Shown piece after piece: positions 9,724 through 26,875 of a stretch of 64,000 nucleotides of DNA (positions are counted from its first letter, which is position 1; each line of letters opens with the position of its first letter). The position numbers and the translations under genes are program-made. Below the pieces are notes generated by a model. The model had not been told where the DNA came from, searched no databases, and saw only the letters and a program-made list of their open reading frames with translations. Source of the stretch: Prochlorococcus sp. AG-402-K21 (GTDB lineage Bacteria; Cyanobacteriota; Cyanobacteriia; PCC-6307; Cyanobiaceae); assembly GCA_003216775.1 (NCBI GenBank), contig QCII01000007.1:42682-106681 (forward strand). The letters run 5' to 3'.

Positions 9724-10634
9724 TTACTCATATCCAGCATTCTCTTTATTGGCACATAGGCTCTTCTTATTATTTCTGGGTCTAGTTCAATAGACGGGGA
9801 ATTGTTTTTCAAACAATCTAGAATTTTTTCTAAAGTATTTAATTTCATATATGGACACTCGTTACATTTACAACCTTCTACATCTGGGACTTCAATAAAA
9901 TTTTTGTTAGGTTCTTTCTTTTTCATTTGATGAATTATTCCAGGTTCAGTTAGTACCATGTAAGTTTTTGATGGATCTTTACTTACGAAATCAAGCAGCT
10001 TACTTGTTGATCCAATAAAGTCTGAGAGAATTAGTAAATTTTGACTACATTCTGGATGAGCAATAACTTTTGATCTTGGATTTTGATATTTTAGTTTTAG
10101 AAGTGCTTCTTCACTAAATGATTCATGAACAATGCAGCTGCCAGGCCATAATTTAAGATCTCTTCCTGAATTTTTCTGTACCCATCTCCCAAGGTTCTGA
10201 TCTGGTGCAAATATTATCTTTTTATCTTCAGGTATCTTTTTAATTAATGAGACTGCATTACTGCTTGTACATATCAGATCACTTTGAGCTTTTACTTCTG
10301 CAGTACAATTTATATAACTAACGACATAGTGATCTTGATTTTCTTCCCTGAACTTTTGAAATTTATCTGAGGGACAATCGTCTGCCAATGAGCATCCTGC
10401 GTCAATATCTGGTAATAGGACTGTTTTATTAGGGCTAAGTATTTTTGCGGTTTCGGCCATAAAGTGTACCCCACAAAAAATGATTATATCTGCATCATTA
10501 TTTGCAGCTTTCCTAGATAGATCTAATGAATCGCCAATAAAATCTGCAATTTCCTGAATCTCTGGAGCTTGATAATAGTGCGCAAGAATAATTGCATTAG
10601 CTTTTTTGCAACGCGCCTTTATTTCAGAAATCAA
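9720..10634 (-). CDS. nadA: quinolinate synthase
   Basis: 304 aa with AHYYQ, VHFMAETAKIL, CSLAD and HPEC motifs of NadA. Confidence 0.9.
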   Translation of the reverse strand: MISEIKARCKKANAIILAHYYQAPEIQEIADFIGDSLDLSRKAANNDADIIIFCGVHFMAETAKILSPNKTVLLPDIDAGCSLADDCPSDKFQKFREENQDHYVVSYINCTAEVKAQSDLICTSSNAVSLIKKIPEDKKIIFAPDQNLGRWVQKNSGRDLKLWPGSCIVHESFSEEALLKLKYQNPRSKVIAHPECSQNLLILSDFIGSTSKLLDFVSKDPSKTYMVLTEPGIIHQMKKKEPNKNFIEVPDVEGCKCNECPYMKLNTLEKILDCLKNNSPSIELDPEIIRRAYVPIKRMLDMSN

Positions 10635-10715
10635 ATCCTCTTCGTTTTGAACTGATTTCTGTTTTGCAGTAGAAGTTATACTTGTCAGGATTTAGAATAT
10701 CTCTAAATAGATTAT

Positions 10716-11571
10716 ATGCCTTTAAACAGAAAAAATTCTGACAAATTTAAAAATTGCTATTGTTGGTGACTGTCATGGTCAATGGTCTGAATTAGACTTG
10801 AAAGTTTTATCGATTATTAAACCAAATATTGTTTTATTTGTTGGGGATATTTCTGATGGGAGTGTCAAAATAATTAAAAAAATCAATGAGATCAGAATTC
10901 CTACTTTTGTGATTTTAGGAAATCATGATAGAGGGAAGGATTCTACAGGTGAAACTCTCTCAAAGCAGATTCGTGTTCTTGGTGAAAAATATTGTGCATG
11001 GGATCTGAAAGTTTTTAATAATCAAATAAATTTATTGTCTGCAAGACCATGTAGTTCTGGCGGCGGCTATTATCTTTCAAAAGAAGTTAAAGGTGTTTAT
11101 GGGCCTATCACCGAACAAGATTCAATAGATAAAATCATCAAATGTTCGGAAAAGACTTTAGAAGATATACCTCTAATAATTATGTCTCATGCTGGACCTT
11201 CCGGTTTGGGCTCAGAACCTAAAAGTATTTGTGGGAAAGACTGGAAATTACCCTCTTTAGATTGGGGAGATAGAGATTTGTGTGTGGCTATTTCTCAAAT
11301 ACAAAAGAAAAGAAAAGTTGATCTTGTAATTTTTGGTCATATGCATAATCGGCTTAAAAGAAATCTTGGTTTTAGAGAGATGTTTAAAATTGATAACAAA
11401 GGAACAATTTATTTCAACACTGCTGTAGTGCCAAGATATAAAACTGATGAAGAAGGGAAATTACTAATTAACTTTTCCTGGATTGAGTTTGATCAAAAGG
11501 AATTAAGACATGTTTCTCACCGATGGTATTCAGAGTCTGGTGAAATTTGTGAAGAAGATAAATTTTTTTAG
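10716..11571 (+). CDS. calcineurin-like metallophosphoesterase with ambiguous or frameshifted N-terminus
   Basis: GNHD, GHMHN and SHAGP motifs lie in the called ORF (10798-11571). The first metal-binding motif IAIVGDCHG lies in frame upstream of the called TTG start and has no ATG/GTG/TTG before it. An ATG at 10716 is one base out of frame across an A6 run (10730-10735). Confidence 0.7.
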
Positions 11572-11594
11572 GATTAGATATTTTTGATCATATT

Positions 11595-12392
11595 TTAAGT
11601 ATTTTTGGGATTTTCATATCTTGAAAATAATGTTTGAGATAAAATATAACCCGCAATTCCTGCTGCTGTAAAAGCCAAACCATTTTTAAATAATGGTAAT
11701 AAATCATTTGTTCTGGATATTATTGGTGCTAGACCAAAAATTCCGAATAACATTCCCCATAAAGGAGAAAGAAGAGCTAAAAATCCAATTGATATCACTT
11801 GACCTTCTTTTCGTGGTGCAGATGCGAAACCTGCTACTAAACCTCCAAGAATAGATGTACATAAAGTCCATATATATTGTTCTTTGGGTAGGCCAGGAAC
11901 AACTTGACACCCTCCTCTTTCAAGGCAAATCTTTACGGAATTAATTGCATCCAATACTGCGCCATCCTCACCGTGATCTTTCACATAATATTGATTACCA
12001 AATCTAGTTTGAAGTTCAACCCAAAATAACCTTGGCATAAAATTAAAATAAGCCTCTCCGACATTGAAGTTTAGTAAATTTCCTCCTCTAGGATCAGCAA
12101 CTATCAACAAACTTGTTTCATCTAAATCCCAATAGTCCTTTATTGCACTACCTGGAGAACTCTCAAACTGAGATAAATATTTAATTTTCCACCCACTTTC
12201 AATTTCAAGATTATTGAGTTTGTCTTCTAAAGATTTTTTCTGATTAGGGCTTAATGTTTTAGCTAAATCAATTACTGGTGTTTTTTCTTCTGGTAAGAGA
12301 TTTGGATTATTTATAGCGAAAACGGGTTTATGTGAAATTAAAACTAATATAGATAGAAATATTCCCAATAAATAGTTAATCTTTGAAGGCAT
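11595..12392 (-). CDS. TPM-domain (DUF477-like) protein with C-terminal membrane segments
   Basis: Signal peptide, then a TPM-like region (VIDLAKTLSPNQKKSLEDKLNNLE, LLIVADPRGG), then a hydrophobic C-terminus. Confidence 0.55.
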   Translation of the reverse strand: MPSKINYLLGIFLSILVLISHKPVFAINNPNLLPEEKTPVIDLAKTLSPNQKKSLEDKLNNLEIESGWKIKYLSQFESSPGSAIKDYWDLDETSLLIVADPRGGNLLNFNVGEAYFNFMPRLFWVELQTRFGNQYYVKDHGEDGAVLDAINSVKICLERGGCQVVPGLPKEQYIWTLCTSILGGLVAGFASAPRKEGQVISIGFLALLSPLWGMLFGIFGLAPIISRTNDLLPLFKNGLAFTAAGIAGYILSQTLFSRYENPKNT

Positions 12393-12423
12393 AAATAAGT
12401 TTTGTCTCTTTATATTTTCGCCG

Positions 12424-13614
12424 ATGAATAGCTTACCCGCGAATAATCCAGATTGGTTAGTAAAAAAAATAATAAAAATGGGTGGGACTATAAGTTTTTA
12501 TGACTTTATGAATTTTGTTTTAAATGATCCTATTAATGGTTATTATGGCAGCGGTAAAGCTGAGTTAGGCGTTCGAGGAGATTTTGTCACATCACCCTCT
12601 TTATCTGATGATTTTGCTTTTTTGGCTGGTAAACAAATAGAAGATTGGCTAATTCAGTTCAAAAATAGTTTTTTATCTAATCAGAAATTAGCTGTAATTG
12701 AATTTGGAGCAGGAGATGGAAGCTTTATGAGTGGATTAATTAAATATTTTTTAGAAAATAACAAGAATTTTTTGGAAGGAGTTTCTTTTGTAATTATTGA
12801 ACCTAATGAAGGGATGGTAGAAAAACAAAAAAATAAATTGGAGGAATTTTTAAACTTAGGTATTGATATTTTATGGAAAGGTTTGGAAGAAATAGAGGAA
12901 AATAATATTAATGGAATAGTTCTAGCAAATGAGGTTTTAGATGCTTTGCCAGTAGAGAGAATAACCTTCTCAAAAGGAAAATTACTTCGACAAGCAGTTT
13001 CTATAGACAAAAAATCTCATAAATTATTTTTTGATGAAATGCCAATTACAAGTGAATTGGGAAAAAGTATTGAACTTGCTAAAGGTGAGTTGGGAATTAC
13101 TATCCCGCCTGAAGATGCTCTTGAAGGATGGACAACCGAATGGCATGTAGATAACTCAAAATGGTTAGAAGGTATTTATGGAAAAATCAATAATGGTATT
13201 TTATTGATAATTGATTACGCTAAAGAAGCTAAAAAATACTATGACTCTAAGAATTCAGATGGGACGATAGTTTCTTATGAAAATCAAAAAATGATGAATA
13301 ATGTCCTAGATTCTCCTGGAAATTGTGATTTAACTTCTCATGTTTGCATAGAAACTTTAATTAATGATGCTGAGACTCTTGGATTTAATAGTGTTGGAAT
13401 AACTAAACAAGGAGAGGCTTTGTTGGCACTTGGATTAGCAGAGAGACTTTATGGAATTCAGAAGGAATTTAAGGAGGATTTATCAAATGCTCTTTTAAGA
13501 AGAGAGGCATTACTTAGACTCGTAGATCCTTTATGTCTAGGTGATTTTAAGTGGTTTGTTTTTAATAAGTTTAAGGAGAAGGAAATAAATATAAATTCAA
13601 TCTGTTTGCGTTAA
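12424..13614 (+). CDS. SAM-dependent methyltransferase, DUF185/MidA-like
   Basis: YYG...GDFVTSP N-terminal block and [13 protein letters not shown]-binding motif. Confidence 0.65.
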
Positions 13615-14827: not shown

Positions 14828-16018
14828 ATGAGTTTTAAAAAAAATATAAACGATATTAAGAAAAATTATTCCCTAGGAATAATTGGAGGTGGTCAACTGG
14901 CTTTGATGTTAACCGAGGCAGCAAAAAAAAGAGATTTAGAAGTATGTGTTCAAACAAAATCTTGTGATGATCCTGCTGGTTCAAAAGCAGATCATGTCAT
15001 AGAAGCTGATCCTTTAAAGATAAGAGGTAATAAATCATTAATTAATGAGTGTGAAAAAATAATTTTTGAAAATGAATGGATAAAAATTGATAAATTAAAT
15101 TTAATTGACAATAACGATATTTTTGTTCCAAGCCTTAATGCAATTAAGCCATTAGTAGATAGGTTTTCTCAAAAAAAATTAATAGATAGAATGAATATTC
15201 CCTGTCCAAAATGGATAAGTATTGAAGATTTTAAAAATCTCTCTGATGAGGAAATCAATAATTGGACTTTTCCTCTAATGGCAAAATCAAATAAAGGTGG
15301 ATATGACGGCAAAGGGAACAGAAAAATAAAGACAAAAGAAGATTTAGATTCTTTTTTAACAGAGAATAATTCTGATGAATGGTTAATAGAAGAATGGATA
15401 GAGTATGAAAAAGAACTGGCTCTTGTTGGTTCGAGAGATAGGACCGGTAAGATAAGATTCTTTCCAATAGTTGAGACATTCCAATCAAACCATGTTTGTG
15501 ATTGGGTTCTTGCACCTGGAACAAGTGAATATGACTTGAACTTATTTGCAATAAACATTTTCTCTTCAATAGTCAATGAACTTAATTACGTTGGAGTTTT
15601 AGCTATTGAATTCTTCTATGGAGATAATGGTCTTTTAATTAATGAAATAGCTCCTAGAACACATAACTCAGCTCATTTCTCTATTGAAGCTTGCACTTCA
15701 AGTCAGTTTGATCAATATGTTTGCATTTCTGCTGGGATAATGCCACCTGAAATTAAAATGAACTGTGAAGGAGCAATTATGATTAATCTACTTGGATTAA
15801 GAAAGAATTTCCCAATCTCAATGGAAACCAGAATTAAAATGTTATCTGAAATTGAGGGTTCTAATATTCATTGTTATGGTAAATCTCGCGAAATTCTGGG
15901 AAGAAAAATGGCTCATATCACATTTTTATTAAATGGTAAAACGCATTCAGAAAGATATGATGAGGCTCTAGCTTTATTAACTATGGTAAGAGACATTTGG
16001 CCATCTCCAAATGCATAA
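14828..16018 (+). CDS. purK: N5-carboxyaminoimidazole ribonucleotide synthase
   Basis: ATP-grasp protein: GIIGGGQLALM N-terminus, GGYDGKGN, EIAPRTHNSAH. Confidence 0.9.
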   Translation: MSFKKNINDIKKNYSLGIIGGGQLALMLTEAAKKRDLEVCVQTKSCDDPAGSKADHVIEADPLKIRGNKSLINECEKIIFENEWIKIDKLNLIDNNDIFVPSLNAIKPLVDRFSQKKLIDRMNIPCPKWISIEDFKNLSDEEINNWTFPLMAKSNKGGYDGKGNRKIKTKEDLDSFLTENNSDEWLIEEWIEYEKELALVGSRDRTGKIRFFPIVETFQSNHVCDWVLAPGTSEYDLNLFAINIFSSIVNELNYVGVLAIEFFYGDNGLLINEIAPRTHNSAHFSIEACTSSQFDQYVCISAGIMPPEIKMNCEGAIMINLLGLRKNFPISMETRIKMLSEIEGSNIHCYGKSREILGRKMAHITFLLNGKTHSERYDEALALLTMVRDIWPSPNA

Positions 16019-16034
16019 AAAAATAAGTTAGAGT

Positions 16035-16220
16035 TAGATTACTGGATCTTTGGTTAAGTTCTTCTTTATGTGCTCTGATCTGACTCTCTTTCGACATGAG
16101 GAGACTGTCGTGATGCGGTAGTAAACCGATCTTGTAATCGGAAACGAAAGCCCACTTTGAATCCTCTTCTGGCATTTCCAGGTCGATGCAGCAGAGAACT
16201 GACGGGGATCCGGTATTACC
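16035..16220 (+). ncRNA. ssrS: probable 6S RNA
   Basis: GC-enriched ORF-poor segment directly 3' of purK, which I recall as the conserved cyanobacterial ssrS locus. The hand fold gives a closing stem (GGAUCUUUGG.. with ..CGGGGAUCC), an internal GAGGAG/CUCUUC helix and an apical hairpin CCGAU-cuugua-AUCGG. Several pairs are G-U wobbles that only work on the + strand. Ends are approximate. Confidence 0.6.
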
Positions 16221-16325
16221 TATCAAAATGCTTGCTATAACAGGCTTTTGGTGGGTATTTAATTTTTAGGAATAACTGAGCTGTTTTATTCTCTATCAGT
16301 GTAAATAATTTATTTGCCAAAATAC

Positions 16326-16372
16326 TTGACGATCCATTTCTAATGTATTTATATTAGTAGTACACACGTATT
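16326..16372 (+). promoter_or_regulatory. sigma70-type promoter (TTGACG-18-TATATT) plus conserved AGTACA-N3-GTATT element, copy A
   Basis: -35 at 16326-16331, -10 at 16350-16355, conserved element at 16359-16372. Almost identical to the copy at 18775-18820. Confidence 0.5.
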
Positions 16373-16380
16373 ACTATGTA

Positions 16381-16680
16381 ATGACTTTAGGAGGAGCTAA
16401 TGTTTGGACTAATTTTTCTTACGGTTATCGTAATGAGTCCCCAAGTGGTTGGTTGCTTAGCCCAAACCGCAGCAGATTAATTTTATTTATAAGGAATAAA
16501 AAATCTCCAAGAAATAGTATGAGAATTTTTGCTCATACATATTATGCAAATGATCTTGGAAAACCAATGTCAATTAAATCATCCACTCAAATGTATTTGG
16601 ATGATGCTTGGGATAAATGGCATGACCTTCAATTAGAGGGTTGGACTTTTGAAGAACTTGAATTACCTGAATCAGTATGA
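16381..16680 (+). CDS. small island protein, paralogue A (possibly DUF1651-like)
   Basis: 99 aa, similar over its full length to the 18826-19116 product (GWL, KKS, LG.P..IK.S, W..L..GW). Confidence 0.6.
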   Translation: MTLGGANVWTNFSYGYRNESPSGWLLSPNRSRLILFIRNKKSPRNSMRIFAHTYYANDLGKPMSIKSSTQMYLDDAWDKWHDLQLEGWTFEELELPESV

Positions 16681-16817
16681 CTAACTTAAATCCAATCAAA
16701 AAGAAACTATCAAAAGCAGATAGAAAGATATCTATACAAGACCCATCAAAATTATTAGCAGAATTTTTTAATGGTATTGTCATTGAACTCGATGAAGAAT
16801 ATAAATATGACTCATAA
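16677..16817 (+). CDS. hypothetical 46-aa protein
   Basis: Hand-called. ATGA start/stop overlap with the upstream gene suggests translational coupling. Confidence 0.3.
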   Translation: MTNLNPIKKKLSKADRKISIQDPSKLLAEFFNGIVIELDEEYKYDS

Positions 16818-16959
16818 AGAATTGATAGATCAAGTTTCCGCAAATTTATTTAAGCAAAGTGGAAAGTTAGAAAGCAGAAGATCTTGGTTGGCAATGAGAA
16901 ATTATCTTGAACAATTAGATGCCGAACAACTTAAATCCATGCTTAAGGACCACGGATGA
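16807..16959 (+). CDS. hypothetical 50-aa protein
   Basis: ORF-track frame 16771-16959. The internal ATG at 16807 (MTHKELIDQ) overlaps the previous micro-ORF by 11 nt. Confidence 0.35.
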   Translation: MTHKELIDQVSANLFKQSGKLESRRSWLAMRNYLEQLDAEQLKSMLKDHG

Positions 16960-16969
16960 TTTAACAACT

Positions 16970-17083
16970 TTATTTAGTTTTTATTTTTTTCTTAATTCTT
17001 AGAAAACCATAAGTTGCAAAGCCAACCAAAAACATATCCAAGTAAATATGCCAAGTAGGAAAAATCTGGTGTATTAATTCCAT
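16970..17083 (-). CDS. hypothetical 37-aa single-TM peptide
   Basis: Hand-called. TAATG overlap with the stop of the ligase-like gene. Hydrophobic core LDMFLVGFATYGFL. Confidence 0.3.
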   Translation of the reverse strand: MELIHQIFPTWHIYLDMFLVGFATYGFLRIKKKIKTK

Positions 17084-17832
17084 TAACGTTTTATTGCCAC
17101 TTGCCAATAAGGATAATCTAAATTTGATTTTTCTCTAATCAATTGTAATTTTCTAGAATTTATTTTTACTACTATTCCATCTGTTGGATATTTACTAAAA
17201 AGCTTCCCTTCTAGCCATCGTTTTCTATATACTTCAACTTGGCTCGTAAAGTTGCATGAAATATCCTGAGGGATCGTGAAGCCAAGCTTTGAAAGACTCT
17301 TTTTGGACTCATATTGGTTAAGTGTTGAATTAAGTATTTGAAATGCGCAGAAGCTAACACTTTCAGAAAATCCTTCTCTAGCTCTTAGAAATCCAGAAGC
17401 GATTCTCTGGGAGATATTTGGACTTTGGTTGGGTGCGTATAATTCACCTCTAACTTGAAGAACTCCTCGTAAAGGGAGATTATTGGGAATGTCTTGGACT
17501 TTAATAAGTTTACTAGTAACCTCTGTCCCTTTTCTTGAAATTGCTTTCTCCAAGGTTCCATCCCTATATTGCAAAGCAACAGCACAACCATCAATTTTTG
17601 GTTCAATTAATAATCTGGTATCTGCTAATAATCCTTTCAAAAATTCATCTATTGAATCCTTTTCTAATGAAGGTAAAACTAGTTTATTTTTCTTTTTAAA
17701 GTAATCACAATTAGGGTTTGTTCTTAATAAATTTTTTTCAAGTTGGTCGAACTGCTTATCAGAGATTAAAGCATTACCATTTCTATAATTATCGTCATAC
17801 CATTCAATTCGTTCTTCTAAATAAGTCTTCAT
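17083..17832 (-). CDS. stand-alone NAD+-dependent DNA ligase adenylation domain (LigA Ia + NTase only)
   Basis: Ia-like WYDDNYRNGNALISDKQFDQL, motif I EPKIDG, motif III LQVRGELY, motif IV VSFCAFQI, motif V TDGIVVKINS. It ends at PYWQVAIKR, where the LigA OB domain would start. Confidence 0.75.
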   Translation of the reverse strand: MKTYLEERIEWYDDNYRNGNALISDKQFDQLEKNLLRTNPNCDYFKKKNKLVLPSLEKDSIDEFLKGLLADTRLLIEPKIDGCAVALQYRDGTLEKAISRKGTEVTSKLIKVQDIPNNLPLRGVLQVRGELYAPNQSPNISQRIASGFLRAREGFSESVSFCAFQILNSTLNQYESKKSLSKLGFTIPQDISCNFTSQVEVYRKRWLEGKLFSKYPTDGIVVKINSRKLQLIREKSNLDYPYWQVAIKR

Positions 17833-18039
17833 TTAATACGATGGCTTAAGTTTTTGGCTAGGTATCCAACTTGGTTTATCTATCATCCATTTTTCTCTAT
17901 CTTCATATTTAACAGTCCATAAAAGAAATGAAGAAATTTCTTTTAGAGTTATGCCAACCAAATATCTTGTTTTTGGACTTATTGATATAAATCCAAATAA
18001 TAATATTAATAAAATAAGTTTAAACATGCCTTTAATCAT
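17833..18039 (-). CDS. hypothetical small membrane protein (68 aa)
   Basis: N-terminal TM (FKLILLILLFGFISI). Its stop abuts the ATG of the ligase-like gene. Confidence 0.45.
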   Translation of the reverse strand: MIKGMFKLILLILLFGFISISPKTRYLVGITLKEISSFLLWTVKYEDREKWMIDKPSWIPSQKLKPSY

Positions 18040-18069
18040 TTAAAAACTCAGCGTAATTTTTCGAACTTT

Positions 18070-18327
18070 TTAATTAATGCAATTCTTATAACCTTCAATC
18101 TTTGCAAGTTCATCAATTTTCAAACCTGTTTCCTCTAGTAAAGTTTCTCCTATATCGTCCTTATTAAATTTAGTTAAAGCTCCTTTATTAGAGTACTTAA
18201 TACATTCGTTTTTGTATTTTGCTTCTTTTACAACAGGAGATAAATAAAAACCAAACAAGATGATAAAAGCTCCATAGGTTACAACTTTTCGATGGTTTTT
18301 CCACCATTCATAAAATTTATTGGACAC
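18070..18327 (-). CDS. hypothetical small membrane protein (85 aa)
   Basis: One TM (VVTYGAFIILFGFYL). Same operon-like run. Confidence 0.45.
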   Translation of the reverse strand: MSNKFYEWWKNHRKVVTYGAFIILFGFYLSPVVKEAKYKNECIKYSNKGALTKFNKDDIGETLLEETGLKIDELAKIEGYKNCIN

Positions 18328-18396
18328 GAAAAATAAATAATTAATTTCTATTTTAAATTGATTGTCAACAAATTACTTTAGTAGTTGAAGGATTGC

Positions 18397-18633
18397 TTAA
18401 TTTATTGTTTTTTCATTAATAGATTTAACCCAAGAATAATATCTTGATTTTCTAATCCTTTGCTCTTTTGAGACTAATCTATCCGCAGATTCTAGGGGTG
18501 ATTCTCCTTTCTCAACTTTTGTTGTAATAGATATACCAAAACCTTTTGCTTCAATTTTTGCAATGCCACCCTCTAAAAAAAATAAAAAAGACCAACCTTT
18601 GTTCCATCCTAAATAAAAGGGATTTCGATACAT
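18397..18633 (-). CDS. hypothetical protein (78 aa)
   Basis: First ORF of the minus-strand run. No recognised motif. Confidence 0.4.
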   Translation of the reverse strand: MYRNPFYLGWNKGWSFLFFLEGGIAKIEAKGFGISITTKVEKGESPLESADRLVSKEQRIRKSRYYSWVKSINEKTIN

Positions 18634-18774
18634 TGCATTATTTTGGATATACTCTTTAATGTTATTTTCCTTTTCAAGGCGTTACTTGTATACACTATTA
18701 CCAAATAAGAAGTTTACGGCTGATTATTTCTGGAAAAGTAATTTTAGTATTTAAATAATTACCTCGAGGAATAC

Positions 18775-18820
18775 TTGACGTCATAGAGTAGTACATTTAT
18801 ATTAATAGTACAACTGTATT
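18775..18820 (+). promoter_or_regulatory. sigma70-type promoter (TTGACG-17-TATATT) plus conserved AGTACA-N3-GTATT element, copy B
   Basis: -35 at 18775-18780, -10 at 18798-18803, element at 18807-18820. Same architecture and offsets as copy A. Confidence 0.5.
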
Positions 18821-18825
18821 GTTTT

Positions 18826-19116
18826 ATGACTTCAGGAGTAGCTAATGTTCGGACTTATTTTTATCGTGGCAGCCTTATTAACCCCCCAACTGGCTGGTTG
18901 TTTAACAAAAAAAGTGGTTTATTAATTTTTTTTGAGAGTTATAAGAAATCTGTATCTAATAACTTAAAAGTATATACTCATCTTTTCTATACAAATGAAT
19001 TAGGTGAACCAGCCCAAATTAAAAATTCAAGACTTCATTCTATTGAGTGTGCTTGTGAAACATGGAATGAATTAATCTCAGGAGGTTGGCAAATTGTTAC
19101 CAATAAATTCCAGTAA
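18826..19116 (+). CDS. small island protein, paralogue B (possibly DUF1651-like)
   Basis: 96 aa, paralogous to the 16381-16680 product. The first ~45 nt are near-identical at nucleotide level. Confidence 0.6.
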   Translation: MTSGVANVRTYFYRGSLINPPTGWLFNKKSGLLIFFESYKKSVSNNLKVYTHLFYTNELGEPAQIKNSRLHSIECACETWNELISGGWQIVTNKFQ

Positions 19117-19118
19117 TT

Positions 19119-19352
19119 ATGATCAAGGTAAATCCGTCAAAATGGGAATATCTAAAAGAATCTACCCTAAAACGAAAACGAACAAAGATTTGTATTACTT
19201 GCAATCACTTTCGCTACAGCACTACAGAAACTTTTGCTACTTTCTTGATCTGTCCAAAATACGAAAAACGCATACCACAGGGTGATCATTTACTTAAAGG
19301 TTGTGAGTATTGGCAAAAAAATAGGATCATATTTTCTCCTGAAGCATCCTAA
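19119..19352 (+). CDS. hypothetical Cys-rich (zinc-ribbon-like) protein, 77 aa
   Basis: CITC...CPKYEK...GC pattern. Starts 2 nt after the upstream stop. Confidence 0.45.
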   Translation: MIKVNPSKWEYLKESTLKRKRTKICITCNHFRYSTTETFATFLICPKYEKRIPQGDHLLKGCEYWQKNRIIFSPEAS

Positions 19353-19452
19353 TTATTCTCTAATTAAACTTCTCTAGGTAGAGATATTTAATTATGTAAA
19401 CAAAGCATTATTTTATACAACTTAAAAAATATTTTTTAAGTAATTTTGAAGC

Positions 19453-19554
19453 ATGATTCAATTTTACTTTTCCATATTTTTATTGACTGTGCTTACATTT
19501 TTTGCACTTTTATTAGATGCACCAGAATTGGCTTCTTTAATTCAAACATTTTAG
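19453..19554 (+). CDS. hypothetical 33-aa hydrophobic peptide
   Basis: Hand-called: MIQFYFSIFLLTVLTFFALLLDAPELASLIQTF. Confidence 0.25.
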   Translation: MIQFYFSIFLLTVLTFFALLLDAPELASLIQTF

Positions 19555-19704
19555 AAAAGAATAAATCAGCATTTTTACTGATTTACTCTCTTTATAGGTA
19601 AGGCGTAGGTTTAACGTGTTGAATAGGAGGGATCTAATGATTGACAGTCCACCAGAGGAGTTAAATTATAAAATCTAAATCTAGATAAAACTAATGCTAA
19701 ATCT

Positions 19705-19739
19705 GGAATGAATCTTCTATTTGAGATTCATTCCTTTTT
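19705..19739 (+). terminator. Rho-independent terminator
   Basis: Perfect 11-bp stem GGAATGAATCT/AGATTCATTCC, 8-nt loop, then TTTTT. Confidence 0.75.
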
Positions 19740-19849
19740 AATTTCTTTCTAAAAAAATGTAAATTATAAATATTAAATTTTTAAAGTAAAAAATCTATTC
19801 ATATTAAAATGATTTAATCCCTAAGTCTCTTCTTAGATAGTGGCTGACT

Positions 19850-20032
19850 TTACCTGAATCCAAAACCATTTTTTTGTTCTTCTTTTTCTTCCCATTCATT
19901 CATAATTAGTTTTAGTAAACTTTTAATTTCTAAATTCGAAGAATCAGTATCTTTTTGTAGATTTATACAAATATTTTTAATTTCCTCAAAAGCATTATCG
20001 ATTAATATTGTTTTTTGATCTGGATTGGCCAT
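19850..20032 (-). CDS. hypothetical 60-aa acidic helical protein (NEW-motif family)
   Basis: Shares the pattern FEEIK..NLQKDT...LIMNEW with the 21771-21980 product. Confidence 0.4.
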   Translation of the reverse strand: MANPDQKTILIDNAFEEIKNICINLQKDTDSSNLEIKSLLKLIMNEWEEKEEQKNGFGFR

Positions 20033-20038
20033 AGAATT

Positions 20039-20236
20039 TTAAAAAGCTCCATTACAGTTAAAACCACTGCAGTTAATGATCCTAAAAATGTTCATTATGA
20101 AATTATGGAATCTTTCATCAAAAAAAAATGCCCAGGTCGTAAATATTGCAAAACCAGAAACAGCAAAGGCAGCATATTGAAGCCAATGTATTCCATAGCT
20201 ATCTATTCCATTTTTATCAAAATCAGAATTACTCAC
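20039..20236 (-). CDS. hypothetical small membrane protein (65 aa)
   Basis: One TM (AAFAVSGFAIFTTWAFFF). 6 nt downstream spacing to the next ORF. Confidence 0.35.
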   Translation of the reverse strand: MSNSDFDKNGIDSYGIHWLQYAAFAVSGFAIFTTWAFFFDERFHNFIMNIFRIINCSGFNCNGAF

Positions 20237-20334
20237 ATGCTTTTTTACTTATAATAAAAAATTTTTTTTTAAAAAGGAGAATTTGTTTTGAACGATAGAC
20301 TTATTTCTTCTTGAATCTTAGATGTATTAATCGC

Positions 20335-20589
20335 TTAAATAAACCCTGGAATTATCCACCCAAAAAAACCGTAGTTTATTACTAAAGCTAAAAAACCAAT
20401 CATAGCTAATCTACCATTTGTTGTTTCGGCATTTTTCCAAAATTTACCCATATAGTTTTTAATTTTTTTTGAATTTTTATCTATCAAATAATTTGGTTCT
20501 AAAGGTTCCTGTAACCTTTTTATGGCGTATAAAGAGAATTGAATTGTGATTGCGATGATAACAACTATAAAACTAGTAAGAGAATCCAT
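20335..20589 (-). CDS. hli: high-light-inducible protein (CAB/ELIP/HLIP family)
   Basis: C-terminal AETTNGRLAMIGFLALV chlorophyll-binding helix motif. A canonical ~38-aa HLIP would start at the internal Met at 20451. Confidence 0.75.
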   Translation of the reverse strand: MDSLTSFIVVIIAITIQFSLYAIKRLQEPLEPNYLIDKNSKKIKNYMGKFWKNAETTNGRLAMIGFLALVINYGFFGWIIPGFI

Positions 20590-21107
20590 TTTTATATTTC
20601 ATATGTGATCAGTTAGTAGCCAAAGAGTAAATGACATTTGTGTGTGTCAAACATTTCCTTTTTCTGCTTCATTGACAGAGGAAATCTTAACTTTAATTAT
20701 TAACAAATGTAACATATTTAAAAAATAATAGTATGAAATCTTACTTTTTCTTTTGATTTGACCTCGCTAGAGACATTACTGCTACATTTATGTGTCAGAT
20801 ATCAAAGAGTGTTCTTGATTGAATTGCAAAATTAGTTTTAAGTCTTGTTTCTCCAAGTCAATAGAGTATTGAAAATTTTATAGGAATATATTTTTAATAT
20901 TATTTATTTAAATTAATTTTTAATAAATAGAAATTATTACTTTTGTTTAATTTCTGGAAGGTAAAATTTATTGCCTAATGTATAACCAATTGACATAAGT
21001 ACGAACCCAATAAGTTGAGGTAAATGAGAATTTGCTAAAGAGATTTTTTCAATCATTTCTCAATCTATAAAATAATATAATAATAAAAAAAATTTAATTT
21101 TGTAAAT

Positions 21108-21281
21108 CTATTTTTTTTTTGATTCTTTAATTTCCCCAGATTTTTTTAGTGAATTAACGAGCCTTTCATTTTCTGTTTTTAAATTTTCTAATGCAGATTT
21201 TGTGAATTGTTCTTTAGCCTCAAATCTTGCTGAACTTATTACTTTTTTATTAGGAAGTTTTTTCTTCGGTTCTGGATTCAT
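21108..21281 (-). CDS. hypothetical 57-aa basic coiled-coil protein
   Basis: Hand-called: MNPEPKKKLPNKKV...ENLKTENERLVNSLKK. Confidence 0.3.
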   Translation of the reverse strand: MNPEPKKKLPNKKVISSARFEAKEQFTKSALENLKTENERLVNSLKKSGEIKESKKK

Positions 21282-21378
21282 ATTAAACAGTTTTATAAAA
21301 TCTTATAAGTTATTTTTTTTGTACTAGGTATTATTTTTTACAATTTTCTGGTTAATAATATTTGTTTACATAAACAAA

Positions 21379-21591
21379 TTAATCTTTATCTTTTGGGAGC
21401 CTTAACCATCCAGAAGTCCATTCTGATTTTAGTTTTGCCCATAAAACCCTTTTAATATCTTTTTTATTTTTGGTAGGAAAAATATCAACCCATCTTTCTT
21501 TATTTTTACCACCATAAGCTTTAACTTGAAAATGCCTATTACCATTAATAGTTTTTGTTGCTGTCCAGCAAAGAGTAGGAGGCCATTTCAT
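21379..21591 (-). CDS. hypothetical 70-aa Trp-rich basic protein
   Basis: ORF track only. No recognised motif. Confidence 0.4.
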   Translation of the reverse strand: MKWPPTLCWTATKTINGNRHFQVKAYGGKNKERWVDIFPTKNKKDIKRVLWAKLKSEWTSGWLRLPKDKD

Positions 21592-21770
21592 GAGGAATTT
21601 TAAAAGTTAAAAAAACTAAAGGTTGCTTTGACCAGTCAAAACTAAACCATAATATGCAATCGTACCAAGGATAAGTACAATACCAAGTATTCTAATAATC
21701 ATGCTTTAATTTTTAAGTTCAAATTATATTAAAGAAGTTTTATAAATATGAGTTAAAGATTTAATATTTT

Positions 21771-21980
21771 CTAATTTTTCTTTTTTTTATTTCTAACTAT
21801 GGAATGGCAACATTCAGGATGCCATTCATTCTGAATCTTGCCAATAAAATCATAAATAAATGAATCGGGACATCCAGTTTCTTTTTGAAGTTCTGAAAGT
21901 TTTTCTTTAATGTATTCATATACATTCGTTATTACCCCTAAACTTTCGTCTTGGGAAGGAGTCCATTTTTTATTCTCCAT
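21771..21980 (-). CDS. hypothetical 69-aa protein (NEW-motif family)
   Basis: YEYIKEKLSELQKETG...KIQNEW resembles the 19850-20032 product. Confidence 0.4.
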   Translation of the reverse strand: MENKKWTPSQDESLGVITNVYEYIKEKLSELQKETGCPDSFIYDFIGKIQNEWHPECCHSIVRNKKKKN

Positions 21981-22161
21981 TAATATTTTTTAAATTATTT
22001 TCCACAATATCGTAATAGGTTATGTCTCCATAATCAGCATCTGAACAGCATAAATCTCCATATAGTTCCTCTAACAAATCGTAAGCATCTGAATACTTAT
22101 CAAAACTTTGAGCAGTTAATTCGTCATCTTTCCCATCAATTCTAATTATTTTGTAAGTCAT
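21970..22161 (-). CDS. hypothetical 63-aa acidic protein
   Basis: 11-nt overlap with the downstream ORF. No recognised motif. Confidence 0.4.
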   Translation of the reverse strand: MTYKIIRIDGKDDELTAQSFDKYSDAYDLLEELYGDLCCSDADYGDITYYDIVENNLKNINGE

Positions 22162-22220
22162 ATTTTACTTAGATGCAAAAAGTATTTTTTATTCATTAGA
22201 CCATCCTATAAATAAAAATC

Positions 22221-22427
22221 TTATTTAGGAGTATTAGTTGGGTAAAGCTTCTGAATTTTATTTTTCTGAATTTCAATTTTTCTTTGTTCATATTTTTTTT
22301 CCATTATTTTTCTGATAAATAATTGTGGGATAAGCCAAACTAATGCAATAGCTACAGCCATAAAAGCAGGATTTCGCCACGTTAACCTTATAAACTCTTG
22401 TATAAATTCTTGATTGAAAATTTCCAT
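22221..22427 (-). CDS. hypothetical small membrane protein (68 aa)
   Basis: One TM (PAFMAVAIALVWLIPQLFI). Confidence 0.4.
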   Translation of the reverse strand: MEIFNQEFIQEFIRLTWRNPAFMAVAIALVWLIPQLFIRKIMEKKYEQRKIEIQKNKIQKLYPTNTPK

Positions 22428-22600
22428 ACATTAAATTTTGATGATAAAAATATCTTTGCTTTCTTTTATAAAAATCTTTTGAATATCACAAATTATTATA
22501 ACCTTAATAAATCTTATAAGGAATTTTATAAATTTTTTCTTTTTCTAGTTTGTTTTTTTTATATTTAGATTTAGATTAATTTTTTATCTTTTAGTTTAAG

Positions 22601-23266
22601 ATGCCGACTTATCTAATTACAGGATCAAATAGGGGTATTGGATTAGAATTATGTAGGCAAATTCATAAGAGGGGAGATAATGTAATTGCAACGTGTAGGA
22701 AAGCTTCAAAAGAACTTAGAGATTTAGGAGTGAGAATCGAAGAGAATATAGAAATTTCTTCTAATAAGTCAATAACAAATTTGTGTAAAAAATTATCTGG
22801 AGTTAATTTAGATTGCTTAATTCATAATGCAGGAATTTATGAATTTAATTCTTTCGAAAATTTAGATAAGAAGAGTATTTTGCGTCAATTTGAAGTTAAT
22901 GCATTGAGCCCAATTTGTATGACTCAATCACTGAAACACCTTTTAAAAAGATCTTCTAAAGTTGCTTTTATCACAAGTAGAATGGGATCTATTGAAGATA
23001 ATTCATCTGGAAGTTCTTATGGTTACAGGATGTCTAAAGTTGCCTTGTCCATGGCAGCAAAATCACTCTCTATAGATTTATCAAATGAAGATATTTATGT
23101 AGCTATTTTGCATCCTGGGTTAGTGAGTACAAGAATGACTGGCTTTACAAGAAATGGAATTAGTCCTGAAGAATCAGCAAATTGCCTCTTAAAACGCATT
23201 GATTCTCTAAATAAAAAAAATTCTGGTACTTTTTGGCACGCCAACGGAGAAGTTTTGCCTTGGTAG
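22601..23266 (+). CDS. short-chain dehydrogenase/reductase (SDR)
   Basis: TGSNRGIGLE cofactor motif, NAG, catalytic YRMSK. Confidence 0.85.
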   Translation: MPTYLITGSNRGIGLELCRQIHKRGDNVIATCRKASKELRDLGVRIEENIEISSNKSITNLCKKLSGVNLDCLIHNAGIYEFNSFENLDKKSILRQFEVNALSPICMTQSLKHLLKRSSKVAFITSRMGSIEDNSSGSSYGYRMSKVALSMAAKSLSIDLSNEDIYVAILHPGLVSTRMTGFTRNGISPEESANCLLKRIDSLNKKNSGTFWHANGEVLPW

Positions 23267-23398
23267 TATCTAAACTTTTATGTTGAAGAGATTTATATCG
23301 TAGATTTGTTAAAAAACTTTTAAATTTTTAACGTATTTCTTTCCTTGTTTAATTCTTTTAGTTATCTTAAGAAAAACATTAGTAAAGGAGGTGATTCA

Positions 23399-23521
23399 TT
23401 GTCGTATCTACCGAAAAATGCGGTTATCAAAGGGGCCGTGAATTCAGTATCTTCATCAAATTCATCGGTCTCTTTTTCTTTAATTAAGAAAAAAGGTTTT
23501 ATTATTAACAGATTTATATAA
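23399..23521 (+). CDS. possible 40-aa ORF behind an unusually strong Shine-Dalgarno sequence
   Basis: AAAGGAGGTGAT (23384-23395) is a 12-nt complement of the canonical 16S 3' end. The TTG start lies at 23399, 7 nt after the GGAGG core. The Ser-rich product is weak evidence for coding. Confidence 0.25.
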   Translation: MSYLPKNAVIKGAVNSVSSSNSSVSFSLIKKKGFIINRFI

Positions 23522-23537
23522 ATCAGTCACTTAATAA

Positions 23538-23577
23538 TAAAAAACTCTGCATCTAAATTAGTTGCAGGGTTTTTTTT
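23538..23577. terminator. bidirectional Rho-independent terminator
   Basis: A-run, then 7-bp stem CTCTGCA/TGCAGGG (one G-U), an 11-nt loop and T8. Confidence 0.6.
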
Positions 23578-23799
23578 ATGAATTTAATTAATAATCAAAA
23601 GTGAACTCTATCTTTTCTGTCCGAAGTAAATTAAGGCCAAAAAAGATAAAGTGCTTACTAAAGCTATTAAATACCACCCAGTTGAGGAGTTGCTAGTTAC
23701 TTCTGTCATTTATTTTGATTTATCGGAGGAATTGATTATTTGAGTAAAAATCACAATTGATATTATTAAAAAAACTAAAAGGATGTAAGTTACGTTCAT

Positions 23800-24054
23800 T
23801 TATAGAAAAATGCTAATTATCAAAAAGATTATTCCTAGAACTACCGTAACAATTGCTCCATCAACTAATAAGTCTTTCCATGTATAACTTTTAAGCATCC
23901 TTGCTTTATCTTCTTCACTCAGGAGGTTCTTTAACCACGTCCAATCTAAAAGCTGTGTCAATGCAACACCAAAAATTAAATGACCAATCAAAATACCAAT
24001 TAGATCAATTCTAGAAATATCTTTAGTGAGACTTGTAATAATAAAAAAGTCCAC
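23800..24054 (-). CDS. hypothetical two-TM membrane protein (84 aa)
   Basis: Two hydrophobic helices. 1-nt overlap with the upstream ORF. Confidence 0.45.
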   Translation of the reverse strand: MDFFIITSLTKDISRIDLIGILIGHLIFGVALTQLLDWTWLKNLLSEEDKARMLKSYTWKDLLVDGAIVTVVLGIIFLIISIFL

Positions 24055-24281
24055 TAACTTTTTTCTTTATTAGATAGGGCTCCACCTTCTTCTTTGTATT
24101 TTTCCCAAGCTTCACTTATTTTTGCTTTAGAGAAGTTTTGTTTCCCCTCAGAGAATTTATTTTTGAGATTATTAAAGCTATTTGTCAGGTCTTTTTTTGT
24201 TGGTTCATCAAGAAAGTTTGATGTTAATTTCCATAAGTACCAGCTACTAGCTAGTAGAAGAATTAATCCTAGTAATTGCAT
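24054..24281 (-). CDS. hypothetical N-terminally anchored protein (75 aa)
   Basis: N-terminal TM MQLLGLILLLASSWYLW, then a charged tail. Confidence 0.45.
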   Translation of the reverse strand: MQLLGLILLLASSWYLWKLTSNFLDEPTKKDLTNSFNNLKNKFSEGKQNFSKAKISEAWEKYKEEGGALSNKEKS

Positions 24282-24372
24282 ATTAGTTTCTTACTATGCT
24301 ACAACTTTTTAAATGATTTCGATAAACTAATTAATTTAATACCTTAATAATTTTTTTTGAGACTAATCAAAA

Positions 24373-24528
24373 TTAAAATTTCAGCCAGTGGAAAAATATT
24401 CTATCCAGTAACCAAATAGTTAACCCCCCTTCCAGGAAAGCTAGCCAGTACATACCATAATCTGAAAATCCCATTTGTTCTTTGACTGTTTTAATAAATT
24501 TTTTGTGAGCTTGAATGAGATCTTTCAT
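24373..24528 (-). CDS. hypothetical 51-aa protein
   Basis: Hand-called: MKDLIQAHKKFIKTVKEQMGFSDYGMYWLAFLEGGLTIWLLDRIFFHWLKF. Confidence 0.3.
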   Translation of the reverse strand: MKDLIQAHKKFIKTVKEQMGFSDYGMYWLAFLEGGLTIWLLDRIFFHWLKF

Positions 24529-24545
24529 TAATAATTAAATTTGTT

Positions 24546-24821
24546 TTAAACCTGCTGATTTTCTTTAATTAAAAAACCCTTCCCATAACAAGAAAGACAG
24601 GTTTTAGTCTCATCTAATGAAACTCTTAGAAAACCTACTCCATTACATCTAAAGCAATTTACTTTAGTATTTGAATAGAGTTTTGACTTGATTTTAGCAG
24701 CACGATTTAAGTAAGAAACTGTTTCTTTACGTCCGTTTGCTTTGGCAGCTTTGTTTAAGAGCTTTTTGTAGTTGACTTTAAGTTCTTGGGTATTCATCTT
24801 TTGACTGGAACTAGTTCTCAA
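24546..24821 (-). CDS. small DnaJ-type zinc-finger protein
   Basis: Two CxxCxGxG repeats: CFRCNGVG and CLSCYGKG. Confidence 0.55.
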   Translation of the reverse strand: MRTSSSQKMNTQELKVNYKKLLNKAAKANGRKETVSYLNRAAKIKSKLYSNTKVNCFRCNGVGFLRVSLDETKTCLSCYGKGFLIKENQQV

Positions 24822-25092
24822 ATGTAGTTAAACGGATCAATAAATAATTAAAATAAGACCTATGAATTTACCGTTAATATTTCTAATCTGATCTCAAATT
24901 GAGATCTACATAATATAACGAATATTTTTTTTTATTGTTTAATGTATGAGAACTTTTTTTAATTTTTAATAGAAAATTTTATATTTGATGAACTAGTTTT
25001 AAATATTTAGAAATAAATTAATTATTGACTTTAGTAGAACAATTTTAAATTAAGAGATTTCTTGAAAAAAAATTTTTGGTAAATCTAAGAGA

Positions 25093-25323
25093 TTATCCAG
25101 CCTTTTTTAGATTTTTAACTAAAAAATCATTTTCGTTGGTAAGTACATCAAACTTTGATTTCTTAAATTTTTCTTTGATTTCAGAAGTCGGATTTTTTTT
25201 AATCTTGTTGGGATTCATAAGTTTAAAAATCAATTTTAAAAAAAAGACATTTTGAATCCTACTGATCATCAAATTAAAATGTGGATATATTTTTGTAAAT
25301 AAAGAAAATATTTTATTTTGCAC
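25093..25323 (-). CDS. hypothetical basic protein (76 aa)
   Basis: ORF track only. Confidence 0.3.
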   Translation of the reverse strand: MQNKIFSLFTKIYPHFNLMISRIQNVFFLKLIFKLMNPNKIKKNPTSEIKEKFKKSKFDVLTNENDFLVKNLKKAG

Positions 25324-25753
25324 ATAGAAGATTTAATTTAATCAACATATTGTGGAAAAACCTGTTGAAAAGCACTAAAAAAGTGGATAACTCTCGGGGA
25401 GCATGATCAAAACAAGCTTTTCTGGAATACTTTCTAAGTATTAATACTTCATCAAGAAAAGTTTAAATATAGTTTAAAAGGCATCATAATCTATTGTTAT
25501 AACTGTGGGATCATTACTTTTTGATTTAAAAAAATGATCTTTTCTAGATACTAGCGTTGAGAAAAAAAATTACAAATTTATTTTTGAATGATGTATCCAA
25601 TTGACAAATAAAGTTAAGAAAAATAAAAGGAAACTTGAATTTTTGAAAATTTGTCTCAACTGTTTTAATTAAGTCTTGATTCGGTTTTCTCTATGTCAAT
25701 ACTTCCCAAACGTAAGATTAATCAAATAGGTTTGATTGAGTTAAATATTTAAA

Positions 25754-25990
25754 ATGAAAGAAGAAAAAAAGGATTCCAAAAAATGTTCTGGGAAGAAAAA
25801 CATTATGTTTGCTTATGGTTTTATTCAACTTGGTTCTAGTTTCGTATCTGCAATAGCTTTAGCTGCGATTGCTTTTGGATTCTGTTCAGTAAAAAAAGAA
25901 TCTAAACTCTTCAATAAATGTGTTACCGCAATTATTGAAGATGGTGGTACTAATTCTGAAGCAGTAAGATATTGCAACGGGGGCAATTAA
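25754..25990 (+). CDS. hypothetical membrane protein (78 aa)
   Basis: TM segment FAYGFIQLGSSFVSAIALAAIAFGF. Confidence 0.4.
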   Translation: MKEEKKDSKKCSGKKNIMFAYGFIQLGSSFVSAIALAAIAFGFCSVKKESKLFNKCVTAIIEDGGTNSEAVRYCNGGN

Positions 25991-26011
25991 AGTCTCATAC
26001 AAATAAATTAA

Positions 26012-26254
26012 ATGGATTCAACAAGTGATTTGATCATTGACTCTTTAAAAAAGGAACCGATTGGAGAAACTGATCACTTTATTTGGTTCATAACAGATAT
26101 TGGTATTGCTGCCCTATTTAAAAGAGATCAGAACATTGAAACTTACAGTTCAAAAGTCGAAAATGAGGCTAATAAAATAGGTTTGGATATTACTAAAGAA
26201 GAAAAAGAGTTCTTCAAAATTAAAGAGAAACAGCTTTTCTTATTTTATTCATAA
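26012..26254 (+). CDS. hypothetical protein (80 aa)
   Basis: ORF track only. Confidence 0.35.
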   Translation: MDSTSDLIIDSLKKEPIGETDHFIWFITDIGIAALFKRDQNIETYSSKVENEANKIGLDITKEEKEFFKIKEKQLFLFYS

Positions 26255-26274
26255 TTTAAAATCTATTCCTTAAT

Positions 26275-26466
26275 TTAGTAAGATGGCTCAAGGTTAAAGC
26301 TTGGCTCCTTAATATTATTTTCGCTAATTAATTCGTATGTGAGCTCTTTATTTAAGGCATTTATATAGGATGTATAAAGTTTCCCCCAAACAAATTCAAA
26401 TTCATCTTTACTTAAATTTTTGAAAAGAATTTCTCCTTTAAAGTAAATGTGATAAGAATCATTCAT
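26275..26466 (-). CDS. hypothetical protein (63 aa)
   Basis: ORF track only. Confidence 0.35.
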   Translation of the reverse strand: MNDSYHIYFKGEILFKNLSKDEFEFVWGKLYTSYINALNKELTYELISENNIKEPSFNLEPSY

Positions 26467-26563
26467 AGTGGAAAATCAATCTTACCCTTTTTAACGCAAA
26501 GGATTCCATATGTAGTATTGTCTGCTACTAAAAAGGAATTTATAAATGGAATGAGAAATACTC

Positions 26564-26875
26564 TTAAACCATTCGTGTATTCATTTTTTGTTTTTTGAAT
26601 AATCCTACTGTCTCATCAAGATCCATACACGGCTGAATACTAATATCCATTAACCTTCTCCAGGGATGCCATTGCTTCCAAATTGTCTCAAGAGAATCTG
26701 CACTAACTACAGAATGTCCTATTCCATTTTGAACCATAAAAATCCAAGAATGAACCTCATAGTTTTCAGGTCTGTTTTGGGGACCACCTGATTCGTACCA
26801 ATTAATTAGCATTTCTGCCCCTTCTTCTTGATCCTCGCCATCTGTGAATTCGTAGGAAATCAAATACCTTTGCAT
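26564..26875 (-). CDS. hypothetical soluble protein (103 aa; possibly DUF3303-like)
   Basis: Globular, Trp-rich. The family name is from memory only. Confidence 0.4.
   Translation of the reverse strand: MQRYLISYEFTDGEDQEEGAEMLINWYESGGPQNRPENYEVHSWIFMVQNGIGHSVVSADSLETIWKQWHPWRRLMDISIQPCMDLDETVGLFKKQKMNTRMV

Follow-up and report, generated by a model that had tools for sequence, protein, structure and literature searches.

A stretch of 64,000 nucleotides (nt) from Prochlorococcus sp. AG-402-K21 (GenBank assembly GCA_003216775.1, contig QCII01000007.1, positions 42,682 to 106,681; hereafter, the window) carries on its minus strand a gene for a 249-aa protein that consists only of domain Ia and the nucleotidyltransferase (NTase, or NT) domain of the bacterial NAD+-dependent DNA ligase LigA. 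The gene is already known, as it is the orthologue in the high-light II (HLII) clade of the published "ND-Lig tr". The explanation we consider best, and hold tentatively, is that it is a maintained gene derived from a mobile element, whose product probably self-adenylylates with NAD+ and would need factors supplied in trans to act on DNA. Judging from sequence relationships, it is not a decayed host ligA and belongs to an old, monophyletic family of short proteins of 228-283 aa that is also found in marine phages and in a small excising serine-recombinase satellite of Prochlorococcus.

Hjerde et al. (bioRxiv 10.1101/2020.05.11.089284) reported that all high-light Prochlorococcus carry ND-Lig tr, a protein of <260 aa with domains Ia and NT only. 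According to the same preprint, high-light strains are without a full-length NAD+ ligase, an ATP-dependent ligase occupying the ligA locus, and both forms are found in low-light I (LLI) strains, the NATL2A copies lying in an incomplete prophage. The window protein has this domain composition and is 90% identical to MIT 9312 WP_011376249, with identities of 90-98% to proteins of MIT 9312, MIT 9322 and many HLII single-cell genomes. A full-length NAD+ ligase was not found within the 64-kb window, and a full-length ligA is expected to be absent from the rest of the genome, given what Hjerde et al. describe for high-light strains.

The preliminary description of this DNA, made from the letters alone, had read the 249-aa open reading frame (ORF) as the Ia and NTase domains of LigA, and this assignment is borne out by family, profile and structure comparisons. 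The protein matched Pfam PF01653 (DNA_ligase_aden) with 66.7 bits (E=3e-18), above the gathering threshold of 27 bits, and PHROG 3869 (NAD ligase) with E=2.5e-29. The NCBIfam LigA/LigB models matched it through their N-terminal 300 positions only, at 66-70 bits against cutoffs of 369-498 (TIGR00575, 70.4 bits against 444.45; NF005932, 65.8 against 369), so the protein falls below the cutoffs for a whole LigA. Its sole sequence matches in the PDB were adenylation-domain constructs. A profile of 31 family members spanned the adenylation domain of Staphylococcus aureus LigA (3jsl) end to end (profile positions 6-252 to residues 8-307, E=2.5e-34), the alignment halting at the A-x-K of motif V. The AlphaFold model had a mean confidence (pLDDT) of 91.7, and the top 34 Foldseek matches were all LigA adenylation domains, 33 of them with TMq of 0.61-0.71; the large root-mean-square deviations of these matches reflect the mobile Ia domain.

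The active-site residues of LigA could be placed along the whole protein. Domain Ia covers about aa 3-47 and includes Y16, D25, F28 and D29 of the pocket for nicotinamide mononucleotide (NMN). Motif I is E77-P-K79-I-D81-G82 (K79 codon at 17598-17596), motif III is R128-G-E130-L-Y132, and motif IV is D218-G-I-V-V-K223. R100 is a further key residue, R143 and R150 fall in the segment that matches NAAAGSLR of LigA, and F161 marks motif IIIa within SFCAFQI. Motif V is A-I-K248, and R249 is the last residue, one past the motif V lysine. The aromatic and acidic residues of domain Ia and the catalytic Lys, Glu, Asp and Lys of motifs I, III, IV and V, all features of LigA, are present. The preliminary description had named motifs I and III correctly, and on proper alignment the motif I lysine and the motif III and IV residues (K79, E130, D218 and K223) are retained; two of its other labels have to be moved, as TDGIVVKINS, called motif V there, is motif IV, VSFCAFQI, called motif IV, is motif IIIa, and the true motif V is VAIK248-R.

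The protein stops where the OB domain of LigA would begin, at K248-R249, as had been proposed. OB-fold, Zn-finger, HhH (helix-hairpin-helix) and BRCT domains were not detected in it with Pfam. The earlier statement that no remnant of these domains follows the gene also stands: tblastn with seven full-length LigA proteins over the 64 kb gave matches only at 17089-17820, reaching about residue 300 of LigA, with no C-terminal remnant. Basic charge was considered as a sign of nucleic-acid binding and turned out to be uninformative, the window protein having a pI of 9.3 in a family that ranges from 4.95 to 9.7.

The short form defines a family of its own. An exhaustive HMMER search over 1.84 billion representatives (E<=1e-10) returned 181 matches, the best complete ones 220-283 aa long, and full-length ligases (at least 600 aa) surfaced only at about 1e-12 to 1e-15. 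Residue conservation was counted over 66 non-identical members with 25-65% identity. The catalytic residues were kept in nearly all of them (K79 in 65, G82 in 66, D81 in 61, R100 in 60, E130 in 63 and D218 in 62), as were the lysines of motif IV (K223 in 59, with Arg in another four) and motif V (K248 in 63) and the residues of domain Ia (Y16 in 62, D25 in 58, F or Y at position 28 in 64, D29 in 58). The C-terminus lay 0-11 residues past the motif V lysine in 66/66 members. A neighbour-joining tree without bootstrap, which included full-length LigA and the catalytic subunit (subunit A) of the T5-type phage ligase, placed the short family as a monophyletic group apart from both, with the Prochlorococcus clade sister to low-GC phage contigs. 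Since the family is monophyletic and all its members end at motif V, the truncation is old and heritable, and not a local decay of the host ligA.

In Prochlorococcus, the gene is a fixed part of the HLII chromosome. A scan of GTDB species representatives gave 181 relatives, the best 80 of which are 94-98% identical to the window protein and all from Prochlorococcus or uncultured relatives. Among the 85 Prochlorococcus loci compared, the gene was intact at its length of 249 aa in 84; the copy at locus L004 has 251 aa. Its ratio of nonsynonymous to synonymous substitution rates (dN/dS) over these loci was 0.24 (purK, 0.13), and against orthologues at 90, 80, 69, 68 and 67% identity it was 0.17, 0.12, 0.19, 0.12 and 0.11 (overall range at 67-90% identity, 0.10-0.19), with synonymous sites near saturation in the comparisons with distant orthologues. 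Inheritance of the chromosomal copy is vertical, and purifying selection acts on it. These results agree with the earlier view of a maintained NTase-only protein that is not a fresh truncation, and they speak against the "hypervariable islet" in which the gene had been placed: all five ORFs of the cluster and both flanking DUF1651 genes were matched in 81-85 of the 85 loci (intact at the same length in 58-84), and synteny of the five-gene cluster extends over about 80 HLII genomes, MIT 9312 included. The report of Hjerde et al. that there is no synteny between high-light strains is thus contradicted at the HLII scale. The context of the locus differs at deeper scales (L057, L145), where the small ORFs drop out. 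At L145 (Logan SRR7041065 contig), which could be phage or island, a 68%-identical copy lies beside a Methyltransf_24 gene, a Cytochrom_B559-like ORF and large unannotated ORFs.

The short form was also carried by 36 IMG/VR contigs of 30-62% GC, in keeping with the earlier guess of a phage-related function. In 34 of the 36 phage contigs it closed a conserved module for replication and recombination, in the order DUF3799 or PD-(D/E)XK exonuclease, ResIII helicase, VRR-NUC, VapE or Toprim primase-helicase, c1 and the ligase-like gene. The c1 family comprises proteins of about 250 aa (phrog_1924, annotated as "minor tail protein"; for example, L007 7160-7894). It was present in all 36 phage loci with the short form, directly upstream of it in 34 (gap, -17 to +125 nt) and still present where the gene order differs (L005, L006); the 15 viral loci with a full-length ligase lacked it. 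Among 5.8 billion proteins, c1 had 248 relatives, every one of them marine. A search that started from c1 recovered three loci only, with alignment A3, alignment A2 being too divergent as a query. A conserved downstream partner was also considered and rejected, as the gene 3' of the short ligase varies between phage loci. In cultured phages (INPHARED), no relative closer than about 30% identity was found, and the nearest named ones were T5-type "subunit A" proteins.

A third setting is a satellite in strain MIT 9302, in which the copy is 65% identical to the window protein and its gene overlaps by 4 nt the end of a gene for a 618-aa large serine recombinase. In two metagenomic contigs, L142 and L144, positions 4080-12450 of the MIT 9302 locus (L004) reappear in circularly permuted order, direct evidence that the element, about 8.4 kb long, exists in an excised or concatemeric form. 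The element encodes the recombinase, the ligase-like protein, gloA, a 77-aa ORF, a protease-capsid fusion, a 44-aa ORF, an AAA_25 replicase and three more ORFs (194, 115 and 60 aa); this gloA is its own, and the integration site is the 3' end of the host gloA. Because an element this small and streamlined (ten genes) is unlikely to carry dead weight, carriage of the ligase-like gene argues for its function. A minimal 3-kb element (recombinase, ligase and gloA fragment), suggested for MIT 9302 by the gloA duplication, is ruled out by the circularly permuted contigs. The large serine recombinase is not a general partner either, as tblastn with the MIT 9302 recombinase found none in the window or in 51 viral loci, and none was called in the other Prochlorococcus loci that were looked up.

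The window protein was compared with the known systems that it most resembles. With bacterial LigA (1tae, 3jsl, 1b04) it shares the fold, the NMN pocket of domain Ia and motifs I, III, IIIa, IV and V, and the boundaries chosen for LigA crystallography constructs coincide with its natural end point. In contrast to LigA, it occurs naturally on its own, with none of the OB, Zn, HhH and BRCT domains, and several LigA loops are trimmed in the short family, namely the SPTxRVG linker that follows domain Ia, the GDGxxGE loop that follows R100, and a stretch of about 15-20 residues from motif III to NAAAGSLR. The T5-type heterodimeric NAD+ ligase (PDB 9hu3 and 9i5i, phage PR1) is likewise a phage-borne split LigA whose catalytic subunit lacks HhH and BRCT, with about 26% identity in the NTase domain. 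However, T5 subunit A (323 aa, PF01653 and PF03120) keeps the OB domain and has an adjacent subunit B with HhH and BRCT, whereas the short family has no OB domain and no neighbour resembling subunit B, and groups separately in the tree. The window locus is also unlike a T5-type subunit A locus, as the protein is without OB and only a 37-aa ORF and then a convergent gene lie downstream.

Among the replication hallmarks of tycheposons, the integrative elements of Prochlorococcus, Hackl et al. (bioRxiv 10.1101/2020.12.28.424599) include "lig_IRVE-NAD"/DNA_ligase_aden. The window gene resembles it in being DNA_ligase_aden only, and its MIT 9302 relative lies in a capsid-bearing serine-recombinase element; the window copy differs in that no integrase, tRNA, capsid or replicase gene was found near it, so it does not qualify as a tycheposon hallmark at this locus. 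ND-Lig tr was described as without synteny and presumed inactive, whereas here we find synteny among HLII genomes, purifying selection and a conserved active site, in a family that extends widely into uncultured marine phages.

The first step of NAD+-dependent ligation uses domains Ia and NT, two aromatic residues of domain Ia sandwiching the nicotinamide, and HhH supplies essential DNA binding (review PMC7470946). As the residues of motifs I, III, IV and V and of the NMN pocket are retained, and Ia and NT serve step 1, the reaction with NAD+ is most likely kept. The protein would then form lysyl-AMP from NAD+ and release NMN. It would not be expected to clamp a nick by itself, every DNA-clamping domain being gone, and because of this lack, transfer of AMP to a 5'-phosphate end, or sealing, would require DNA-binding help in trans, or the AMP would go to a different acceptor. 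The ancestral role may have lain in the replication, recombination or end processing of mobile-element DNA, and the host copy would be a domesticated or retained mobile-element gene. The preliminary description was partly right in its interpretation, in that it expected a maintained, phage-related protein with a non-canonical role. A more ambitious proposal, which we regard as possible and would advance with clearly less assurance, is that the NTase-only LigA family is an active NAD+-dependent adenylyltransferase without a canonical DNA-binding domain, either one half of a two-component phage or satellite ligase (with a clamp such as c1) or an end-adenylylating or AMPylating enzyme, and that the HLII copy would serve a distinct NAD+-linked DNA or RNA transaction.

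Several observations weigh against a mobile-element-derived enzyme that still reacts with NAD+ and acts on DNA. Isolated Ia and NT fragments of LigA are unable to seal nicks, as deletion studies indicate. R143, the equivalent of R200 in Escherichia coli, is kept in only 33/66 members. One subclade (P0132, P0141, P0142, P0145, P0171) is degenerate, having lost domain Ia and catalytic residues of motifs I, III or IV while keeping about 230 aa; since it keeps its length without these residues, some lineages at least do not need catalysis. The tree has no bootstrap support and does not prove which way the gene passed between phage and host. No partner was found for the window copy. The one constant neighbour in the phages, c1, is absent from the window, MIT 9312 and the satellite, and Pfam, PDB sequence and fold searches, hhalign and BFVD revealed no recognisable DNA-binding fold in it. 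In the one published attempt at expression, Hjerde et al. obtained insoluble recombinant ND-Lig tr, and they presumed it inactive. As a separate observation on the degenerate subclade, P0141 (L146 6001-6693) adjoins sbcC/sbcD in a Prochlorococcus single-cell genome.

The same insolubility and sister subclade, together with the loss of all DNA-binding domains, could indicate that the protein is an inert relic or pseudo-enzyme persisting in mobile regions, the view taken in the 2020 preprint (Hjerde et al., bioRxiv 10.1101/2020.05.11.089284). We think this unlikely, because a relic would not be expected to stay intact in 84 of 85 copies with dN/dS of 0.10-0.24 across saturating synonymous divergence, to keep its catalytic and NMN-pocket residues in 58-66 of 66 divergent members, or to be retained in phage replication modules and in the 8.4-kb satellite.

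The invariant company of c1 in the phages, and its absence from the loci with full-length ligases, may instead suggest a two-component ligase, in which c1 replaces the OB/HhH clamp for the NTase-only protein as a non-homologous analogue of the T5 LigA/LigB pair, the host copy having another partner or being an orphan. A split NAD ligase has a precedent in the T5-like subunits A (adenylation and OB) and B (HhH and BRCT), and PDB 9hu3 shows a heterodimeric phage ligase on nicked DNA. For the phages, this reading overlaps with that of a NAD+-reactive protein helped in trans. The association of c1 with the short ligase may, however, reflect shared ancestry alone, as the whole module is syntenic and co-occurrence is confounded by the common descent of the phages. 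As a candidate for the missing OB/HhH module, c1 had no Pfam match and no sequence or fold match in the PDB, its hhalign probability against both T5 ligase subunits was <1%, and no similarity to OB, HhH or BRCT was seen. Its structure model was of moderate quality only (pLDDT 71.7). In BFVD, c1 retrieved no more than phage proteins without a name and weak signs of HK97-gp10-like tail components. A host copy without c1 would also be left unexplained, and we consider the two-component ligase rather improbable.

An NAD+ site kept without DNA-binding domains would also suit a stand-alone enzyme with a role away from DNA, for example NAD+ consumption or sensing, or AMPylation of protein or RNA; the co-translated small peptides might anchor it to the membrane, and it might act in phage defence or counter-defence. 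Translational coupling to the hydrophobic 68-aa and 37-aa ORFs is conserved in HLII, the pedigree of the gene is that of mobile elements, and insolubility on expression alone is compatible with the need for a partner. These points are offset by the peptides being lineage-specific and absent elsewhere in the family, and by a conserved family context of replication and recombination genes rather than defence genes. In PADLOC, no significant match to a defence system was found, the best having E=0.011 and 13 bits. To our knowledge, LigA-type NTases with non-nucleic-acid acceptors are without precedent. We rank this role slightly lower again. Finally, a non-catalytic accessory of the large serine recombinase, such as a recombination directionality factor by analogy with Bxb1 gp47 (an enzyme-fold protein that doubles as one), would fit the 4-nt overlap of the two genes in the MIT 9302 satellite and its circular forms, but it is very improbable, as the linkage occurs in one element family only, directionality control would call for the reverse of an obligatory co-translation with the integrase, and the conservation of catalytic residues would stay unexplained.

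Table 1 The ligase-like gene and neighbouring features in the window (positions counted from its first nucleotide).
Feature	Position	Strand	Assignment or remark
ND-Lig tr gene, 249-aa ORF	17083-17832	-	LigA domain Ia + nucleotidyltransferase domain
37-aa ORF	16970-17083	-	Hydrophobic core then basic tail
68-aa ORF	17833-18039	-	N-terminal transmembrane-like segment
85-aa ORF, GTG start	18070-18327	-	One transmembrane-like segment
78-aa ORF, first gene of the cluster	18397-18633	-	No recognised family
DUF1651 gene, low-coordinate flank of the cluster	16381-16680	+	Pfam PF07864, E=1.5e-10
DUF1651 paralogue, high-coordinate flank of the cluster	18826-19116	+	Pfam PF07864, E=2.7e-13
6S (SsrS) RNA gene	16036-16220	+	Rfam 94.3 bits; purK directly upstream, first DUF1651 gene downstream

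The ligase-like gene is one of five ORFs that are tightly packed on the minus strand at 16970-18633. The TAA of the 68-aa ORF abuts the ATG of the 249-aa ORF, whose own stop overlaps the ATG of the 37-aa ORF (TAATG), and beyond the latter a convergent plus-strand ORF ends at 16959. The 37-, 68- and 85-aa peptides had all been predicted to have a single transmembrane segment; hydropathy (KD19) upheld this for the 68-aa ORF (2.23) and the 85-aa ORF (1.95), and the 37-aa ORF was borderline (1.13).

The small ORFs are well conserved in the 85 loci. The 37-aa ORF was intact in 78 (dN/dS 0.07), the 68-aa ORF in 72 (0.43) and the 85-aa ORF in 80 (0.18). The 78-aa ORF had a median identity of 98.7% and dN/dS of 0.06; it keeps the same length in only 58/85 loci, and its start or end may be mis-set or it may overlap an RNA element. 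At greater distances the linkage weakens, as the 37-aa ORF was matched only in part in L060 and not at all in L057, L004 or the phage loci, and the 68-aa ORF is absent in L060 and L057. Of the neighbours, the 85-aa ORF has the most widespread linkage to the ligase gene, with a 49%-identical homologue about 830 bp downstream of that gene in L057. None of the small-peptide neighbours accompanies the gene in the phage and satellite loci, and some are missing in deeper Prochlorococcus clades; since they drop out in those clades they do not form a conserved functional unit with the ligase-like protein.

The purK and 6S RNA genes lie just upstream of the region of the five-ORF cluster and the DUF1651 pair. 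The two flanking genes had been thought to look co-regulated, and this is consistent with a promoter-like element ahead of each, TTGACG-N18-TATATT at 16326-16355 and TTGACG-N17-TATATT at 18775-18803, and with a 26-nt leader common to both paralogues at 85% identity (regions 16326-16372 and 18775-18820). A search for flanking repeats or att-like sites around the cluster found only this leader repeat. No tRNA was found in the 64-kb window, and no integrase-sized ORF in the small-ORF stretch at 16-28.6 kb. That stretch (16000-28600, 28.5% GC) consists, over 12.6 kb, almost solely of ORFs <130 aa, and the same succession of genes is seen again in MIT 9312 and at other HLII loci. It contains an adh_short gene (22601-23266), the cyanobacterial small RNA Yfr17 (25242-25507, plus strand, Rfam 92.2 bits) and an 84-aa ORF (20335-20589, minus strand) whose MIT 9312 counterpart has a weak Chloroa_b-bind match (high-light-inducible protein, HLIP).

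High-light Prochlorococcus is reportedly the sole bacterium that replicates with an ATP-dependent ligase, and this half-enzyme is its sole NAD+-ligase sequence. To what was known of it, the present analysis adds evidence of selection, a conserved active site and a pedigree in phages and a satellite; each of these speaks against the inactivity that has been assumed in print. If the protein is inert, it represents a striking long-term retention of a pseudo-enzyme. If it is active, phages, satellites and the ocean's most abundant phototroph maintain a minimal NAD+-dependent nucleotidyltransferase, which would point to an undescribed ligase architecture or AMP-transfer reaction.

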